A stretch of DNA of 64,000 nucleotides from Candidatus Sumerlaeaceae bacterium (GTDB lineage Bacteria; Sumerlaeota; Sumerlaeia; Sumerlaeales; Sumerlaeaceae), in contig JBMFRB010000004.1 of NCBI GenBank assembly GCA_049968255.1, positions 64,001 to 128,000 of the forward strand. Direction: 5' to 3'. Below are positions 16,990 through 21,837 of this stretch, piece by piece. The position numbers and the translations under genes were made by a program. The notes beneath the pieces are model-generated. The model saw only the letters and a list, made by a program, of their open reading frames with translations. It was not told the DNA's origin and made no database searches. Numbering within the stretch: position 1 is the stretch's first letter; every line of letters starts with the position of its first letter.

Positions 16990-17232
16990 ATGACCCTCAA
17001 CGATCTCCTTCGTTGGCGACACCAAAATGCTCCTCGCGTTCTGAAGTTCATCAAACAGCATCGCGAAGTCGCTGGCGTTCATTACATGGTTGCAGAGGAC
17101 GGTTCTGCCTACATTGAGTTTGTCATTAAGCCTTGGGGCGATCTCGATCTTCTCGTGTCAGAAGTAAATCTTGCCTTTCCCGACGTGGAATGCCGAGTAT
17201 CAGAGCCCGACGACGATCTGTTCGAGATCTAA
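16990..17232 (+). CDS. small hypothetical protein, possibly RAM/ACT-like fold
   Basis: GAGG RBS; 80 aa of protein-like composition; fills the gap between the tRNA and a terminator. Confidence 0.6.
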   Translation: MTLNDLLRWRHQNAPRVLKFIKQHREVAGVHYMVAEDGSAYIEFVIKPWGDLDLLVSEVNLAFPDVECRVSEPDDDLFEI

Positions 17233-17268
17233 AAAATTGAAGGCGACGGCGCGGAGCCGTCGCCCTTC
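17231..17268 (-). terminator. intrinsic terminator between convergent genes
   Basis: GGCGACGGC-gcgga-GCCGTCGCC stem with an upstream A6 run (U-tract on the minus strand). Confidence 0.7.
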
Positions 17269-17294
17269 TCCCACATGACTTTGACGGTTAGCGA

Positions 17295-19223
17295 TCAGTA
17301 GCCCTCAGCTGGATTCACCCCATATTTTGCTGCAGGATTTGCCCATCGCACAAGCTTCTTATTTTTGCCCTTGATGAGCACATCGCGCCGTGCCGCGTGT
17401 TCGTTCTCGCTTTGCAGCGAGGTGCGTAGTCGCTCGCGCACTTGCTCGTAAGGCGGGACCTCGCCTTCCCAACGTTCCTCAAGTTTCACAATTACGAACG
17501 TGTTGCCAAACTGGCGAACTTCGCTGAGCTCACCGGCCTTCAACCAACTAGCCACAGCACCAAACATGCGCCCAGCAGGATCATTGAGGTGCGCCAGCAC
17601 CGAGCGTTCCACTAATCCACCCGAAGAGGCGCGGTTATCTTCCGAAAGTTCCCGCGCTAACTTCTCGATATTCTCGCCAGCCAAAATGCGCTTACGAATT
17701 TCTTCAGCTTTGCGCTTAGCAGCCTGACGCGCCTCATCCAGCGACATGCCTGCGCTGGTGGGTTTGGCATTGATGCTAATAATATAGCCTCGCCCTTCTG
17801 GCAAGCGCATAAGGTCTTTGCGCTGTTCGTAAGTTTTTTTGATGAGCTCTTCGGTCACCGGAAAACTCTCAGCCGTATAAGCGGCAAACACTTTTTTCAT
17901 GTGCGCCCGCTTACTGGCCCACTCCAGATCCCGGGCCACGCGCGGATCTTTATCCACGCCTTCCTCCAACGCCCAATGGATGGCCGCAAGCTCATTCACC
18001 ACTTCGTCGAAAAGCATGGCCAAGGTTTCGGTGCTTTGCGAACGCGCGCGATAAGCCGCAGTAAACCGTGGGCCGTAAACCTCTTCAAGTTGTCGCAACG
18101 ACCACGTGCGGTCCTTGATTTTCACCGCGGGCACATCACTCGTGAGGCTGTCAGCTTTTGTCACATCGAACAGCACTTTTGCTCCAAGTTTTTCTTTCAT
18201 TGCTTTCACGCCATCTTGCCACTTCTGACGAACCATTTGCAGCTGAAGCGAACGCGGCAGGATGCGGCTCGTGATAAGCTCATCGGTCGTCGGAACGTAG
18301 GTCGTTAGACGGTCGGCACAATACATCAAATGCAAGCCGTGGCTCGTTTCCAGAATATCCGACACCTGCCCCGGCTTTAGGTTGAACAATGCATTCTCCA
18401 GCACGATGTTCATTGGCTTAGCTTCTGGACCGATCGGCATACGCCGAGAAATCCAGCCGATATCGCCGCCGGTCTTGCCGCTTGCAGCTTCGGAGTACTT
18501 CCGGGCCAACTGCGCAAACGACGTTCCCTCATCAGCGAGTTTTTTCACTTCGGCCATTCGTTGCCGCACGGCTTCGGCGCTGCTTGTGGGCACGTCCTTT
18601 GATATTTGCATGAAAAGATGAAAGGCATGGACCTGCTCGGGGCGCGCAAAACGATTTGCATTCTCGCGCGTCCAAACGTCCATCTCGGCCTTTGTCGGCG
18701 AAGTCTCATTCTCGAGCTTCATCCTCAGGCCTTGTTTGAGAATAGCCAGCTCTTGAAACGTCGTATAAGGAAAAGGCACCTCTGGCTTTGTGACTTTTCT
18801 CGCGATGTCAGGAATAACATCGTCGATAATCTCCTGTAGGACAAAGTCCTGCAAAAGGTCATGCTGACGCTTCTCGCTCGCTCCGCCCCCTTCAAGGTAA
18901 TCCACCAGACTGCAATAGGTGGTGAAGGTGTCCTCCCGCAATTCCTTGCCTTTGACCACGGCGAGAAGGAATTGGCCTGGCTTGCCAGTGTCTGGCAATG
19001 GTTTATCAGGAAGGGAGGGGGTTCGCGACGCTGCTGCAGTGGTCGTGCCCCCTTTTTCGGCAAGCACACTCTCGGCTCTTTTCGTCGGTCTCTTTGGGGG
19101 GCTTGTTTTTGATTCTGCTGCGCCACTGATGCTAGGGACAGCCATCAGCGAAACCATTGCTCCAAAAACAAGCGAACTCACATGCTTGGATGCAGTCACG
19201 GCGATACCTGTCCATTTACTCAT
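17295..19223 (-). CDS. exported peptidyl-prolyl isomerase/chaperone with two parvulin domains (SurA/PrsA-like)
   Basis: Signal peptide; SFAQLARKYSE..SGKTGGDIGW, GQVSDILETSHGLH; second domain LARELSED..SSGG, GELSEV. Confidence 0.85.
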   Translation of the reverse strand: MSKWTGIAVTASKHVSSLVFGAMVSLMAVPSISGAAESKTSPPKRPTKRAESVLAEKGGTTTAAASRTPSLPDKPLPDTGKPGQFLLAVVKGKELREDTFTTYCSLVDYLEGGGASEKRQHDLLQDFVLQEIIDDVIPDIARKVTKPEVPFPYTTFQELAILKQGLRMKLENETSPTKAEMDVWTRENANRFARPEQVHAFHLFMQISKDVPTSSAEAVRQRMAEVKKLADEGTSFAQLARKYSEAASGKTGGDIGWISRRMPIGPEAKPMNIVLENALFNLKPGQVSDILETSHGLHLMYCADRLTTYVPTTDELITSRILPRSLQLQMVRQKWQDGVKAMKEKLGAKVLFDVTKADSLTSDVPAVKIKDRTWSLRQLEEVYGPRFTAAYRARSQSTETLAMLFDEVVNELAAIHWALEEGVDKDPRVARDLEWASKRAHMKKVFAAYTAESFPVTEELIKKTYEQRKDLMRLPEGRGYIISINAKPTSAGMSLDEARQAAKRKAEEIRKRILAGENIEKLARELSEDNRASSGGLVERSVLAHLNDPAGRMFGAVASWLKAGELSEVRQFGNTFVIVKLEERWEGEVPPYEQVRERLRTSLQSENEHAARRDVLIKGKNKKLVRWANPAAKYGVNPAEGY

Positions 19224-19258
19224 GAGCTGTTTCTCCTTCCTTGGGCAAGAATGTTGAG

Positions 19259-20314
19259 TCAGCTTCGCTTTGTTCTGGGGCGTTTTGCTGATGATTTCCT
19301 CGTTCTCTTTTGGGATTGGCTCGGGCTTTTCGTCGAAGTTGTTTTGGTTTTTTCCGCTCGCTTCAGAGATGCTGCAGTTGACATCTCAGAAACAGCCCGC
19401 CGTTTTTTCGCTGCCTCTTCTCTTATACTCTTGGTTTGCTTTGCTGTGGTTGCTGCCCTGCGCGACCGCCTAGCCTTCTCCGGCTCGTTTTGTGCAGATT
19501 TACGCGGACGCCCACGCTTTCGTGGCGTTGCTGGTGCGGCCTGTTCAGCTGTCACAGTCTTTCGCGGACGTCCCCTCTTGCGTGGTGTTGCCGTGAATGT
19601 TTCCGTCTTGGGCTGCGGGCTCTTTGGCGGGCGTCCGCGACGCCGCTTCGGCGCAGCTTCTACCTCTAACGATTCTTCTTGTGTGATGTTTTTCGCAGGT
19701 TTGCGTTGCTCTGTTTCCGACACTTCCTCGGGGGGCTCTTGCGTCTCCGGCTCGATGTCCTCCGTGGTCGGTTCTGCAGGTTGGCTTGTCCATTCTTCGG
19801 GCGGGATACGGATAAAGTCCGTTTCTACGAGCTTCTCGAGAGCGGCCTTTAGCTGTTCGAAGACGCGTTTGAACGTGTCCATCGTCCCCCCCATAGGATC
19901 AGGGATCTGAACGTCCTTGCCTTGGTAGCCCACGTATTCCTTAAGAAGAAACGTTTTTTCCCGCGCCCCTTCGTCGTCGTGGATCTCCTTATACTCGCGA
20001 ATCGCTTTCTGCACGTGCAGCGACGACATGCCAAGAACTAGGTCGGCCTCCTCAAGCATGTGCACCTTCATTGGGCGTGAGCGATGACGGCTGATATCTA
20101 CCCCTTCCTCTCTCAGAAGCTGTTCCGCCTCCGGAGTTGGTAAGAGACCCGTCGGCGTCATCACCCCCGCGGTTGAAATCTCGATCCAGTCAATCCCCCG
20201 TTCGTGTAAGAGCTTCCTGAGGTACCCTTCTGCCATCGGACACCGACAGTTATCACCCGTGTCGAGCAGCAACAACTTCTTCTTGCGAACTCCACGCGTT
20301 TGCTGGTTGTTCAA
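19259..20314 (-). CDS. LMW-PTP/YwlE-like domain with non-canonical P-loop, fused to an AT-hook/histone-like tail
   Basis: DTGDNCRCPMAE (canonical CTGNxCRSPMAE), STAG, SRHRSR, ADLVLGM, IPDPMGG; tail RRGRPPK and 2x RKRGRPRK; GGAGG RBS then TTG at 20314. Confidence 0.85.
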   Translation of the reverse strand: MNNQQTRGVRKKKLLLLDTGDNCRCPMAEGYLRKLLHERGIDWIEISTAGVMTPTGLLPTPEAEQLLREEGVDISRHRSRPMKVHMLEEADLVLGMSSLHVQKAIREYKEIHDDEGAREKTFLLKEYVGYQGKDVQIPDPMGGTMDTFKRVFEQLKAALEKLVETDFIRIPPEEWTSQPAEPTTEDIEPETQEPPEEVSETEQRKPAKNITQEESLEVEAAPKRRRGRPPKSPQPKTETFTATPRKRGRPRKTVTAEQAAPATPRKRGRPRKSAQNEPEKARRSRRAATTAKQTKSIREEAAKKRRAVSEMSTAASLKRAEKTKTTSTKSPSQSQKRTRKSSAKRPRTKRS

Positions 20315-20418
20315 GCTCTTTGCCTCCAATAAAAAAATCACAATAACTGATCTTAGCAAGATCATCGCGAAGCCGACATGGCCCCGCGCAAGGATTTTTT
20401 ACGTGGAGGACGAAAAAA

Positions 20419-20871
20419 TTATGCCACAGCGCTCTGCCGTGTTTTTCTGACGAGTTCCTTCAGAGCTTGGTTAAGGAAGGGTTTCTCGATAAGATCAACA
20501 GCACCAGCCGACAGGGCTCTCACCCAGAGTTCCTCGTCGCCGACCTCGGTCACTACTGCACAGGGGACGTAGCGTTGCGCGCCAACCAGCTCCTTCACAA
20601 GGTCGCAGAAATCGGCGCCCACCTCGTCAGCGTCCACGAAAACGATGTCCACCGCACCTTCGTCTAGGAGTGCGCGCGCCTCAGTTGGCTGCGCAGCAAA
20701 GGAGCATCGGACCTGCACCCCTACTTCGCTCCCTCCCCGCACGAGGGCGTCAGCGAGTTGGTTGTCAATTCCAACGAGCAGCGCTCGCACCGATTCCCGC
20801 ATCCGCGTCTCAACTTTACCCAGCATTGTTGCACCCTCCGAAACTGCTTGTTGGCCCACTTTCTTAGACAT
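20419..20871 (-). CDS. stand-alone response regulator receiver domain
   Basis: DIVFVD, VVT, GAVDLIEKPF. Confidence 0.75.
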   Translation of the reverse strand: MSKKVGQQAVSEGATMLGKVETRMRESVRALLVGIDNQLADALVRGGSEVGVQVRCSFAAQPTEARALLDEGAVDIVFVDADEVGADFCDLVKELVGAQRYVPCAVVTEVGDEELWVRALSAGAVDLIEKPFLNQALKELVRKTRQSAVA

Positions 20872-21123
20872 TTTTAGCCGGCTTACGTTTCGCTAAGAAA
20901 ACGACAAAATTGTGAAATTAATTGGAGCGATTGAAACGAATTTGCTCTTCCCCCCCCATGATCCCGCGGATGGCAATTTGCGAAAACTGTAGCGCAAGAC
21001 GTGACCTAGCGCCATTTCGTTCTCAGAGTCTAACGCCCCACGAAAGAATCTCTGCGAAACAACGTCCGGCCTCGTTTTGACTCATTCATGCTTGAAACCG
21101 AACAGTAGGCGCCGCGGGAGTGT

Positions 21124-21837
21124 ATGCGTCAAGGCGTGAAAACAAAGATTGCCATTTACGATTTCGAAAGCTGCAAAGGTGCGCTTGAATCTCACGCGCA
21201 AGAGTTGGCTGAGTCCGCGGAAGGACTCATCCGTTGGGCTTCATTTCGCGACTTTATCCAAACCTTCGCGCGTGAAGCCTACGAACACCGGACCTGCGTA
21301 CTTGGCCAGTTCGATCCAGACGTCGTCTTTGCGTTTGTCCCCGCAGAAGGGATGAACGCGAATGATCGCGAAGCCTTGTGGGTGACGGTGCTCGCTCATG
21401 CGCGTCAGCTCATGGGCAACACAGCTAATCTCTACTGGATTGATTTTCTCGACGCCGTCGCTCCGAGCGGTGGCCCAAAAACGGGAGCTCTTCAGAACTC
21501 ATGGATTGATTCCACACTGGCTGAAGAGCTTCTGTTGGCTCAGCGTCTTGTCATCTGGGTTTTCTTCAACGTAAAACGATTTATCGAGAAGGTCGTCCAG
21601 CCCCAACTCCAGAAACGAGGTTTCGAAATTCTACCCGATCAATCGGACGAGCAATCGAGCGCCCTGCGCATCAAGCATCCCAAGCGCCCAAGAACGATCT
21701 TTTACCTCCCCTGGGCCGACTGGTTTCGCGAGATGGTGGGCGGAGGATTCAACATGCTTTACCTCATGGCTCTCGTAGCCATCTATTTGCAGAAACTTGA
21801 TCACGCGGTGACGAACAGTGGGCAAGGCGAGCACTAA
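21124..21837 (+). CDS. hypothetical protein
   Basis: 237-aa ORF with GGGAG RBS, overlapping the start of the next gene. Confidence 0.7.
   Translation: MRQGVKTKIAIYDFESCKGALESHAQELAESAEGLIRWASFRDFIQTFAREAYEHRTCVLGQFDPDVVFAFVPAEGMNANDREALWVTVLAHARQLMGNTANLYWIDFLDAVAPSGGPKTGALQNSWIDSTLAEELLLAQRLVIWVFFNVKRFIEKVVQPQLQKRGFEILPDQSDEQSSALRIKHPKRPRTIFYLPWADWFREMVGGGFNMLYLMALVAIYLQKLDHAVTNSGQGEH

Follow-up and report, generated by a model that had tools for sequence, protein, structure and literature searches.

The window analysed here is a stretch of 64,000 nucleotides from a Candidatus Sumerlaeaceae bacterium. On its minus strand lies a gene whose product joins an LMW-PTP domain of the YwlE lineage to an acidic linker and a long basic tail with three AT-hooks. 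The features of the locus are as follows.

17240..17266, minus strand: terminator-like hairpin after the isomerase gene, 11 pairs, 8 of them G-C, with a T-run (from a consensus scan only)
17295..19223, minus strand: PpiC-type peptidyl-prolyl isomerase gene with two rotamase domains (Pfam Rotamase), 35 nt downstream of the window gene
19259..20314, minus strand: the whole window gene, 351 codons plus stop (open reading frame and translation), encoding a YwlE-lineage LMW-PTP domain, an acidic linker and an AT-hook/basic tail
19262..19648, minus strand: basic region, residues 223-351, 45 K/R and 8 D/E, containing all three AT-hooks
19505..19516, minus strand: AT-hook core 3, RGRP in TPRKRGRPRK (motif from residue 263, core 267)
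19565..19576, minus strand: AT-hook core 2, RGRP in TPRKRGRPRK (motif from residue 243, core 247)
19628..19639, minus strand: AT-hook core 1, RGRP in KRRRGRPPK (residue 226)
19649..19804, minus strand: acidic linker, residues 171-222, 16 D/E and 3 K/R
19829..20260, minus strand: LMW-PTP (LMWPc) domain, residues 19-162 (Pfam PF01451, 89.2 bits; AF2 pLDDT 94.6)
19886..19900, minus strand: DPMGG motif, in which D139 aligns to Asp118 of YwlE (general acid, guanidinium clamp)
20240..20263, minus strand: P-loop D18-T-G-D-N-C-R-C25, aligned to YwlE residues 7-14, with the Asp codon GAC at 20261-20263 in place of the Cys nucleophile
20419..20871, minus strand: single-domain response-regulator receiver (PF00072), 104 nt upstream of the window gene

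Inspection of the reading frame placed the start at a TTG codon at 20314, with GGAGG 8 nt upstream. Starting instead from an ATG in the same frame at 20365 would lengthen the protein by 17 residues. The database protein P0002 (351 aa) matches the gene product at 100% identity over its full length, and the translation includes LLLLDTGDNCRCPMAEGY. The earlier note had described a P-loop D-T-G-D-N-C-R-C with an Asp codon GAC, and the translation bore this out, with Arg24 and IPDPMGG kept. The rest of the layout that it had described was also found, namely the acidic linker, the three AT-hooks, the two TPRKRGRPRK copies 60 nt (20 codons) apart and the K/R-rich tail.

The isomerase gene is the same neighbour in 11 of 12 family loci, and the receiver is adjacent in 6 of the 12. 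No terminator-like site was found by the consensus scan on the minus strand between the window gene and the isomerase gene, and the two genes are presumably co-transcribed. A scan for sigma-70-like promoters returned 0 sites in 17000-21300 (the mean of the shuffles was 1.9). Cys-type orthologues of other families lie in an LptF/G - ywlE-like - rpiB - glyA neighbourhood, and the Ser-type genes are also found with rpiB-glyA. No LMWPc gene stands beside rpiB-glyA in the genome of the window.

The fold of the domain is clear. Pfam LMWPc (PF01451) scored 89.2 bits against a cut-off of 23.2 on residues 19-162, and the AF2 model of the gene product (pLDDT 94.6, pTM 0.89) has the LMW-PTP alpha/beta fold. 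Foldseek against the PDB gave 97 matches at E <= 0.001. Ranks 1-5 were taken by 4egs and YwlE structures, with target-normalised TM-scores of 0.92 for 4egs and 0.91 for YwlE 4kk4. The best PDB matches by sequence were again 4egs and YwlE (4kk4, 4eti, 1zgg, 4kk3 and 4pic), with E values from 4e-24 to 2e-16. The YwlE entries ranged from 9e-18 to 2e-16, and Tyr-type enzymes and ArsC reached 1e-8 or weaker, except 2cwd with 2e-12. An ESM Atlas search returned only generic LMWPc clusters for the window protein. The PDB sequence search and Foldseek support the assignment of the domain to the YwlE (phosphoarginine) lineage, in agreement with the LMW-PTP/YwlE relationship suggested earlier.

YwlE of Bacillus subtilis and Geobacillus stearothermophilus (4kk3, 4pic, 1zgg) is the nearest solved relative, and the fold is alike. 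The equivalents of its Arg13, Cys12 and Asp118 are kept in the window protein, and co-occurrence with McsA/McsB is common to both. The sister-family Cys-type orthologues share the P-loop CTGNTCRS and the rpiB-glyA neighbourhood. In contrast, the window protein carries Cys7 to Asp, Asn10 to Asp, Thr11 to Asn and Ser14 to Cys, has an extra acidic-plus-basic tail of 190 residues, and is encoded by a gene relocated beside the receiver and the PpiC isomerase. The C-X5-R-(S/T) signature of LMW-PTPs is consequently absent, with Cys replaced by Asp and Ser/Thr by Cys; the Arg is kept. Asn22 of the window protein aligns to Thr11 of YwlE, which is described in PMC7772506 as a determinant of phosphoarginine specificity; Thr is kept at this position in 22 of 24 aligned orthologues from outside the family. 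The two carboxylates in the P-loop, D18 and D21, should weaken anion binding unless compensated, a point that counts against a simple phosphoarginine-binding role.

An orthologue is present in 67 of 75 species genomes of the phylum Sumerlaeota, nearly always with a basic tail. Of these 67 genomes, 49 have C at the nucleophile position, 12 D, 5 S and 1 A, so that 18 of 67, about a quarter, are cysteine-less. The exact P-loop of YwlE, CTGNTCRS, occurs in 35 of the 49 Cys-type genomes. Every one of the 12 gene-bearing genomes in the window's family has Asp; outside that family the residue is Cys, Ser or Ala. DTGDNCRC is the P-loop in 11 of the 12 family genomes, and the exception, G004, has DTGDTCRA. 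Three neighbouring P-loop changes accompany Asp in the family (+3 N to D, +4 T to N and +7 S to C), and the Asp clade is also fixed outside the P-loop at P54, E69, R80, F148 and L159. The Asp clade is deep and uniform, and with these extra fixed changes it looks more like a rebuilt than a dead active site, which sits uneasily with a mere reader. The Asp is not the product of a sequencing error: its codon is GAC, and Asp is kept in 54 of 111 proteins (the window protein and its 110 search matches) and in 12 species genomes. Local decay is ruled out in the same way by the phylum-wide orthologues and the 12 of 12 family genomes with Asp. The orthologue search that the earlier note had proposed as a guard against decay found no family member that keeps Cys or lacks the tail, and this supports Asp as a fixed and selected state.

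The history of the substitution was followed on a tree for which the P-loop columns had been removed from the alignment; a 1679-aa multidomain match was left out, as were representatives without a P-loop at the N-terminus or with a stretch shorter than 130 residues beyond it. Eight changes of nucleophile state were counted (D 2, S 5, A 1). The Asp-type sequences fall into two groups on the best tree, with a bootstrap interval of 2-2 and no bootstrap tree with one origin. However, the AU test does not reject one common origin for every Asp-type sequence (p = 0.369). Because the AU test permits one origin while the best tree and the bootstrap show two groups, only one or two apparent origins are claimed. 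Both groups, with DTGDNCRC and DTGDICRC, carry D at +3 and, for the most part, C at +7; the +7 Cys is present in 22 of 26 Asp-type sequences and is A or S in the other 4. Among the best 150 representatives, 134 of them with a recognisable P-loop, 20 of 29 basic-tailed sequences are cysteine-less, against 1 of 105 untailed ones (1 real case).

The phosphate-binding part of the domain has been kept through these changes. No change is seen at T19, G20, C23, R24, P26, D139, P140, M141 or G142 among 36 species orthologues, 18 of them cysteine-less, and TG, Cys+5, Arg+6 and DPMGxT are kept in 67 of 67 sequences of the tailed clade with any nucleophile. Within the genus, dN of the domain is 0.04-0.09 with saturated dS, and dN of the tail is 0.60-0.86, about ten times higher. 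The phosphate-binding residues are thus under selection though the nucleophile is replaced, as would be expected of a pseudophosphatase. Catalysis looks dispensable in the tailed architecture.

The tail evolves fast in sequence; its composition is kept. The Pfam AT_hook model gave 13.7 bits (E 0.059), below its gathering score of 17.4. Nevertheless, the window protein holds three copies of the form P-x-[KR]-R-G-R-P-[RP]-K, and the hook pattern is conserved in 14 related proteins with at least two RGRP cores. Among six-frame open reading frames of at least 80 codons in the whole 3.1-Mb genome, only the window gene and its own antisense frame contain at least two RGRP. The full-length search also matched a CarD-family regulator (P0111) through the tail, with E 4e-4, and the hooks of P0111 are of the same form. 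An acidic region plus AT-hooks is the layout of CarD and HMGA according to PMC2919716, and the HMGA/CarD-type tail proposed earlier was found as described, with the acidic linker followed by the hooks. The C-terminal HMGA-like domain of Myxococcus xanthus CarD likewise has an acidic region and then AT-hooks of the same form. However, its N-terminal partner is an RNA-polymerase-binding CarD_CdnL_TRCF domain and not a phosphatase fold, and CarD has four hooks instead of three. AT-hook tails and H1-like K/A/P tails interchange within the one orthologous family studied here; the same is reported in PMC2919716 for CarD, including an H1-like Anaeromyxobacter analogue. Judged by its likeness to the tails of HMGA, CarD and H1, the most likely role of this tail is to keep the protein attached to DNA.

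A basic tail is also carried by 40 of 48 Cys-type orthologues and is, judged from this distribution, older than the Asp substitution. The earlier expectation that Asp and AT-hooks form one co-occurring unit did not hold up, because RGRP hooks occur in only 4 of 12 Asp genomes and the rest have K/A/P-rich H1-like tails. Since the hooks are not tied to Asp, the tail is older and the thiol was lost to Ser and Ala as well, the real unit appears to be the phylum-wide family of tailed YwlE proteins, in which the nucleophile was lost repeatedly.

Little explored as a bacterial signal, arginine phosphorylation has been described chiefly in Firmicutes, where it tags proteins for degradation. In the literature consulted, its named components are few: McsB as the writer, YwlE as the eraser and a receptor pocket that McsB itself bears. 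CtsR and HrcA are DNA-bound targets of McsB in Bacillus. The search for mcsB that had been suggested was run, and mcsA-mcsB was found in the genome of the window: a PF00217 match of 190.7 bits adjoins the gene of a UVR/zinc-finger protein, and a full-length alignment of the McsB with 6fh1 gave E 6e-67. PF00217 is present in 39 of 41 relatives, including 13 of 13 family genomes. The other LMWPc genes of the window's genome are a Tyr-type gene (CLGNICRS/DPYW) and ArsC in an ars operon. A hidden canonical YwlE paralogue is ruled out there, as all three LMWPc genes are accounted for. No Cys-type YwlE was found in this genome or in the five Ser/Ala genomes checked, and all of them keep McsB. CtsR and HrcA were not found in the window's genome, which is 95.75% complete. 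B. subtilis without ywlE is reported to be thermosensitive (PMC8370763), and its YwlE is given as about 134 molecules per cell (bioRxiv 10.1101/2022.09.15.508104). If phosphoarginine needs enzymatic removal, the window protein is the obvious candidate, with McsB present and Cys-type YwlE absent.

Because the thiol is lost while the phosphate cradle is intact, the product is read as a YwlE-derived phosphoarginine-binding module, probably DNA-tethered and without thiol chemistry, that acts as a reader or trap. This reading is favoured tentatively, somewhat short of an even call; we infer its DNA binding, its phosphoarginine ligand and its lack of turnover. In the class Sumerlaeia, the YwlE domain has a long basic C-terminal tail, H1-like and K/A/P-rich in most lineages. 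The genus of the window and a few of its relatives have an HMGA-like version instead, in which an acidic linker is joined to 2-3 AT-hooks. The family of the window has, moreover, exchanged the Cys7 thiol of YwlE for Asp and left the cradle unchanged (Thr-Gly, Cys23, Arg24 and the Asp139-Pro guanidinium clamp). The protein may then bind phosphoarginine stoichiometrically as a natural trap or reader, without rapid turnover. The marks written by McsA/McsB would be recognised on or near the nucleoid, and the marked proteins, or McsB itself, would be shielded or retained rather than the mark being erased.

There are several precedents for such a module. The natural Ser-type P-loop STGNTCRS is identical to that of the engineered YwlE C7S (4kk4), which is described as phosphatase-inactive (bioRxiv 10.1101/2022.09.15.508104), and a phosphatase trap mutant has been used for enriching phosphoarginine proteins (PMC9112008). 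In the engineered proteins as in the window protein the nucleophile is removed and the phosphate cradle is kept. However, those are laboratory mutants; here D, S and A are natural, and Asp is fixed across a bacterial family together with further changes. The D2 domain of Drosophila PTP99A, a natural Cys-to-Asp PTP domain, is reported to bind substrate and to be catalysis-deficient (PMC3172300). Like PTP1B C215D, it has Asp at the nucleophile with the P-loop Arg kept; both are of the classical PTP fold, eukaryotic and directed to pTyr, and thus of a different PTP class. The proposed non-catalytic recognition of phosphoarginine would be shared with the known receptors, although the folds of the McsB site and the ClpC N-terminal domain are unrelated to that of the window protein. 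The ClpC N-terminal domain is a phosphoarginine receptor. A phosphoarginine receptor pocket of McsB is described in PMC8370763.

The main rival to the reader is an active Asp-based phosphoarginine phosphatase or phospho-acceptor. Asp18 would attack the phosphoramidate to give a labile acyl-phosphate, which water hydrolyses, possibly with a metal at D18/D21, and McsB marks on the nucleoid would be erased without an oxidation-sensitive thiol. This is a serious but rather doubtful possibility. The presence of McsA/McsB beside the absence of a Cys-type YwlE would suit it, as would the invariant general acid D139 and Arg24, the strongly conserved DTGDNCRC with P54 and R80 co-fixed, the strong purifying selection on the domain, and the D at +3 and usual C at +7 shared by both Asp groups. 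According to the title of 4kk4, the active-site Ser of YwlE C7S is phosphorylated; a phosphoryl group can therefore be accepted by an oxygen nucleophile at the Cys7 position. An Asp acyl-phosphate would be labile enough for turnover. Transfer from a phosphoramidate to Asp is the chemistry of His-Asp phosphorelays and counts for this rival too. On the other hand, sister lineages with Ser or Ala keep both McsB and the architecture, and turnover is therefore unneeded for the architecture to persist. Moreover, the reported inactivity of YwlE C7S (bioRxiv 10.1101/2022.09.15.508104) and the catalytic deficiency of the natural Cys-to-Asp PTP domain (PMC3172300) argue against an active Asp. Of the pseudophosphatase on the nucleoid that the earlier note had inferred, the fixed Asp, the YwlE lineage and the mcsAB genes stand.

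Two further readings leave phosphoarginine aside. In a nucleoid redox or metal sensor, D18/D21/C23/C25 (D-x-x-D-x-C-x-C) would bind a metal, or C23 and C25 would form a disulfide, and the engagement of the tail with DNA would be altered with no phosphoarginine role. Cys23 is invariant in 67 of 67 clade sequences even without the nucleophile, and 22 of the 26 Asp-type sequences have a second Cys at +7 along with Asp. However, A or S stands there in the other 4, including DTGDTCRA of G004, and this weakens the CRC redox chemistry considered earlier. In addition, Arg24 and the DP loop are invariant without an evident role in such a sensor, and Cys-type relatives carry the same tail without the cluster. 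A sensor of this kind is improbable. It is also quite unlikely that the basic tail is the working part, binding nucleoid, RNA or polyphosphate, with the phosphatase-like domain as a ligand-free scaffold or dimerisation module. The tails are present across the class, they keep their composition in spite of fast evolution, and the nucleophile was lost repeatedly, all of which would fit. Yet the invariance of Arg24, D139-P140 and the P-loop Thr-Gly in 36 species would not be expected of a scaffold, nor would a domain dN some tenfold below that of the tail.

The phosphoarginine-binding reading can be extended to the whole clade. We regard it as possible, though by no means probable, that the tailed YwlE proteins are a natural series of readers to which an eraser gave rise more than once (Asp, Ser, Ala), after this active arginine phosphatase had gained its histone-like tail. 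They would form the first dedicated nucleoid-tethered phosphoarginine-binding domain, which shields or retains McsB-marked proteins. In the boldest version, the Asp form would be a phosphoarginine-to-Asp phospho-acceptor, a receiver-like switch on a phosphatase fold. Our literature search turned up no paper that describes, for bacteria, an LMW-PTP/YwlE homologue whose nucleophile is naturally Asp, Ser or Ala or whose tail is of the histone or AT-hook kind. McsB, histone and nucleoid are not mentioned in PMC8092238, a paper on Sumerlaeota genomics.

A diderm candidate phylum thus has an eraser with a histone- or HMGA-like tail across a class, and around a quarter of the species are cysteine-less with the phosphate-binding residues kept. 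As readers, these proteins would count among the rare pseudophosphatases of bacteria and provide a natural affinity reagent for phosphoarginine. Should the Asp form prove active, a Cys-phosphatase fold would house an oxidation-proof enzyme with an Asp nucleophile. Controls are built into the clade itself, in which Cys, Ser, Ala and Asp versions all occur naturally. The window protein also adds a prokaryotic protein with an HMGA-like domain beyond the myxobacterial CarD proteins; CarD and its Stigmatella orthologue were given as the only known prokaryotic HMGA-like cases in a 2010 paper (PMC2919716). Tandem Repeats Finder detected no tandem DNA repeat in the tail. The two 30-nt units that encode TPRKRGRPRK agree at 23 of 30 bases and differ at 7, each time synonymously.

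The Asp-type gene, named for the residue at the position of YwlE Cys7, is real, conserved and under selection.

19259-20314 (-): Asp-type gene, an open frame with a TTG start at 20314 and GGAGG 8 nt before the start

An in-frame ATG 17 codons further upstream is a possible alternative start. The protein is identical over its full length to a 351-aa database protein, and its named database matches belong to Candidatus Sumerlaeota (formerly BRC1), Sumerlaeaceae and Sumerlaea chitinivorans. The Pfam family LMWPc covers residues 19-162 and scores 89.2 bits (cut-off 23.2). The P-loop reads L-D-T-G-D-N-C-R-C, with the Asp codon GAC at 20261-20263, and both Arg24 and the IPDPMGG loop are retained. 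An acidic linker (residues 171-222; 16 D/E, 3 K/R) is followed by a basic region (residues 223-351; 45 K/R, 8 D/E) with three AT-hook cores, one in KRRRGRPPK and one in each of two TPRKRGRPRK units at a 20-codon interval. The earlier note had described the P-loop, the GAC codon, the Arg, the DP motif, the linker and the hooks correctly in every detail. The two TPRKRGRPRK units share 23 of 30 bases, all differences are synonymous, and no DNA repeat was detected in the tail by TRF. Therefore, the hook peptide is what is conserved. The Pfam AT_hook score of the tail is 13.7 bits, under its threshold. In a six-frame search of the 3.1-Mb genome (95.75% complete, 31 contigs), no other open frame of at least 80 codons carried two RGRP cores, except the gene's own antisense frame.

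The best PDB sequence matches were 4egs and then the YwlE structures 4kk4, 4eti, 1zgg, 4kk3 and 4pic (E 4e-24 to 2e-16), with Tyr-type LMW-PTPs and ArsC near 1e-8 in the same comparison. An AlphaFold2 model, built with an alignment of 36 species orthologues, reached a mean pLDDT of 94.6. Its five top Foldseek matches were 4egs and four YwlE entries (target-normalised TM-scores 0.84-0.92). When aligned to YwlE, D18 corresponds to Cys7, D21 to Asn10, N22 to Thr11, C23 to Cys12, R24 to Arg13, C25 to Ser14 and D139 to Asp118; functional roles of Cys7, Thr11, Arg13 and Asp118 have been described (PMC7772506 and a 2026 preprint). The expected recognition target would be that of YwlE, but the protein departs from YwlE in Cys7, Thr11 and synteny.

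A full-length search returned 110 proteins, and Asp occupied the nucleophile position in 54/111 with the query included. At a threshold of E <= 1e-20, an orthologue was present in 67/75 Sumerlaeota species genomes and in 43/43 high-quality ones, and the P-loop was typed in all 67. Cys-type orthologues numbered 49 (CTGNTCRS 35, CTGDTCRG 9, CTGNTCRG 4, CTGDTCRN 1), Asp-type 12 (DTGDNCRC 11, DTGDTCRA 1), Ser-type five and Ala-type one. All 12 Asp genomes lie within the window's own family of 13 species genomes, whose single member without a match is 66% complete. A basic tail (28 or more residues, net charge +6 or higher) was found in 12/12 Asp, 4/4 scorable Ser, 1/1 Ala and 40/48 scorable Cys orthologues. 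Thus the family shows none of the local decay, with Cys kept or the tail lacking, that the earlier note had considered: 12/12 are Asp and 12/12 are tailed. The proposed co-occurrence of Asp with AT-hooks did not hold, because RGRP hooks are limited to four of the 12 Asp genomes (three each in G000, the genome holding the window, G001 and G002, and two in G006). The remaining tails are rich in K/A/P and resemble histone H1. Since the tail is spread over all four types and the hooks are in four genomes only, the basic tail was gained before Asp and the AT-hooks after it, as read from these sequences.

The basic-tailed Ser-type (STGNICRS, STGDTCRS, STADTCRS) and Ala-type (ATGDTCRS) orthologues are distributed across four other families.

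L023/L024 (G025, G019), L037 (G014), L096 (G043), L099 (G037), L026 (G024): natural Ser- and Ala-type loci

HMMER was run exhaustively over 1.84 billion representatives, and 134 of the 150 best had a recognisable P-loop. Among these 134, 29 were basic-tailed (Asp 13, Cys 9, Ser 6, Ala 1) and 105 were not (Cys 103, one Asp with a neutral tail, one false motif). A maximum-likelihood tree was calculated from 77 sequences, 10 of them untailed YwlE-like outgroups, after deletion of the P-loop columns; a multidomain row and the truncated rows were excluded. The tailed clade was supported at 99/98. Eight nucleophile changes were counted: two to Asp (bootstrap range 2-2), five to Ser (range 4-5; at least three forced by well-supported branches) and one to Ala. 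A single Asp origin was not rejected in the AU test (p = 0.369). A second Asp-type group of metagenome proteins (P0062, P0119, P0122, P0123; 443-492 aa), with DTGDICRC, YRS for HRS and longer tails, sits apart from the main Asp clade in the tree; the single origin that the AU test did not reject would join these two groups. Among Cys-type sequences, Asp at P-loop position +3 accompanies the loss of Ser at +7, CTGD always occurring with G or N and CTGN mostly with S. This pairing suggests that residues supporting catalysis eroded step by step, either ahead of the Cys loss or together with it.

T19, G20, C23, R24, P26, H77-R78-S79, D139-P140-M141-G142 and T144 are invariant in the 36 species orthologues, and 67/67 tailed-clade sequences retain TG, Cys+5, Arg+6 and DPMGxT independently of the nucleophile. 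Within the window's genus, dN was 0.04-0.09 for the domain (dS saturated) versus 0.60-0.86 for the tail. The Asp clade differs from the rest by fixed N22, C25, P54, E69, R80, F148 and L159. At the sequence level, the pattern is that of a constrained ligand-binding pocket, not decay.

The earlier note had asked for mcsB, the arginine kinase gene, and it was found in G000.

L033 (contig C8) 1180-2802 (-): mcsA-like and mcsB pair, in a phylum of diderm type as judged from LptF/G genes in relatives
L034 (contig C2) 2564-4028 (-): Tyr-type LMW-PTP (CLGNICRS), overlapping or abutting a fructosamine-kinase-family gene (PF03881)

McsB scored 190.7 bits for PF00217, aligned over its full length to 6fh1 (E 6e-67) and is adjoined by an McsA-like zinc-finger/UVR protein. 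Two double Clp_N repeat proteins were also found. PF00217 was present in 39/41 relatives, among them 13/13 from the family and the four of Ser/Ala type in that sample. The other LMWPc genes of G000 are the Tyr-type CLGNICRS/DPYW enzyme, which may form a kinase-phosphatase pair with its PF03881 neighbour, and ArsC in an ars operon; in five Ser/Ala genomes the other LMWPc genes are also Tyr-type or ArsC-type only. Therefore, phosphoarginine (pArg) is written in these genomes without a thiol-type YwlE. Neither CtsR nor HrcA was found in G000; the targets in this genome are therefore not those of Bacillus.

Our tentatively preferred reading, held at somewhat under an even chance, is a reader or trap: the Asp-type domain would bind pArg stoichiometrically and the basic tail would keep it on DNA. 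It is favoured because engineered YwlE C7S, whose P-loop is identical to the natural Ser-type STGNTCRS, has been described as phosphatase-inactive (bioRxiv 10.1101/2022.09.15.508104), a phosphatase trap mutant is a standard tool for pArg enrichment (PMC9112008), and a natural Cys-to-Asp PTP domain was reported as binding-competent and catalysis-deficient (PMC3172300). In addition, the tailed clade alone shows repeated Cys loss, and the residues contacting phosphate and guanidinium do not vary. The main rival, a serious one and only somewhat less probable, is an Asp enzyme or phospho-acceptor, in which hydrolysis of an Asp acyl-phosphate would yield a thiol-free phosphatase. In favour of this rival, age, uniformity and co-adaptation mark the Asp clade, and its gene is the sole YwlE-like one accompanying McsAB. 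Moreover, the title of 4kk4 reports a phosphorylated C7S serine, and thus an oxygen nucleophile there can accept a phosphoryl group. A redox or metal sensor is improbable, as is a mere scaffold domain, and the remaining probability was assigned to explanations outside these four.

The tail layout matches CarD/HMGA, as had been proposed from the acidic linker and three AT-hook cores. The swap of AT-hook and H1-like tails among the orthologues parallels that reported for CarD proteins (PMC2919716). No published description of such a tailed, nucleophile-swapped YwlE homologue was found in the literature searched, which included few subscription journals; the earlier note had known of none either. 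In the Sumerlaeota genome paper (PMC8092238), the terms McsB, histone and nucleoid do not occur.

A ywlE - rpiB - glyA-type neighbourhood is known from B. subtilis. Cys-type and some Ser-type orthologues of other families lie in an LptF/G - ywlE-like - rpiB - glyA neighbourhood, and two STGNICRS genes remain in the LptF/G or rpiB-glyA setting. In the window's family the gene was relocated, and no LMWPc gene lies beside the rpiB-glyA pair of G000. Its present neighbours are as follows.

17295-19223 (-): PpiC-type isomerase, 642 aa, two rotamase domains, directly downstream in 11/12 family loci
20419-20871 (-): single-domain response-regulator receiver (PF00072, E 2.4e-10), preceding the gene in 6/12 family loci
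21124-21837 (+): 237-aa protein without a Pfam family, divergent and upstream, beyond the receiver

A terminator-like hairpin follows the isomerase gene and none lies between it and the Asp-type gene on the same strand; the two are probably co-transcribed. The isomerase N-terminus, read by eye, resembles a signal peptide. This places the gene of a probably exported foldase next to that of a cytoplasmic YwlE homologue. A weak terminator-like hairpin (20441-20425) overlaps the 3' end of the receiver gene. The 237-aa protein is a conserved divergent neighbour upstream, seen in G000, G010 and G012 at least, with homologues at 31% identity (E about 1e-37).
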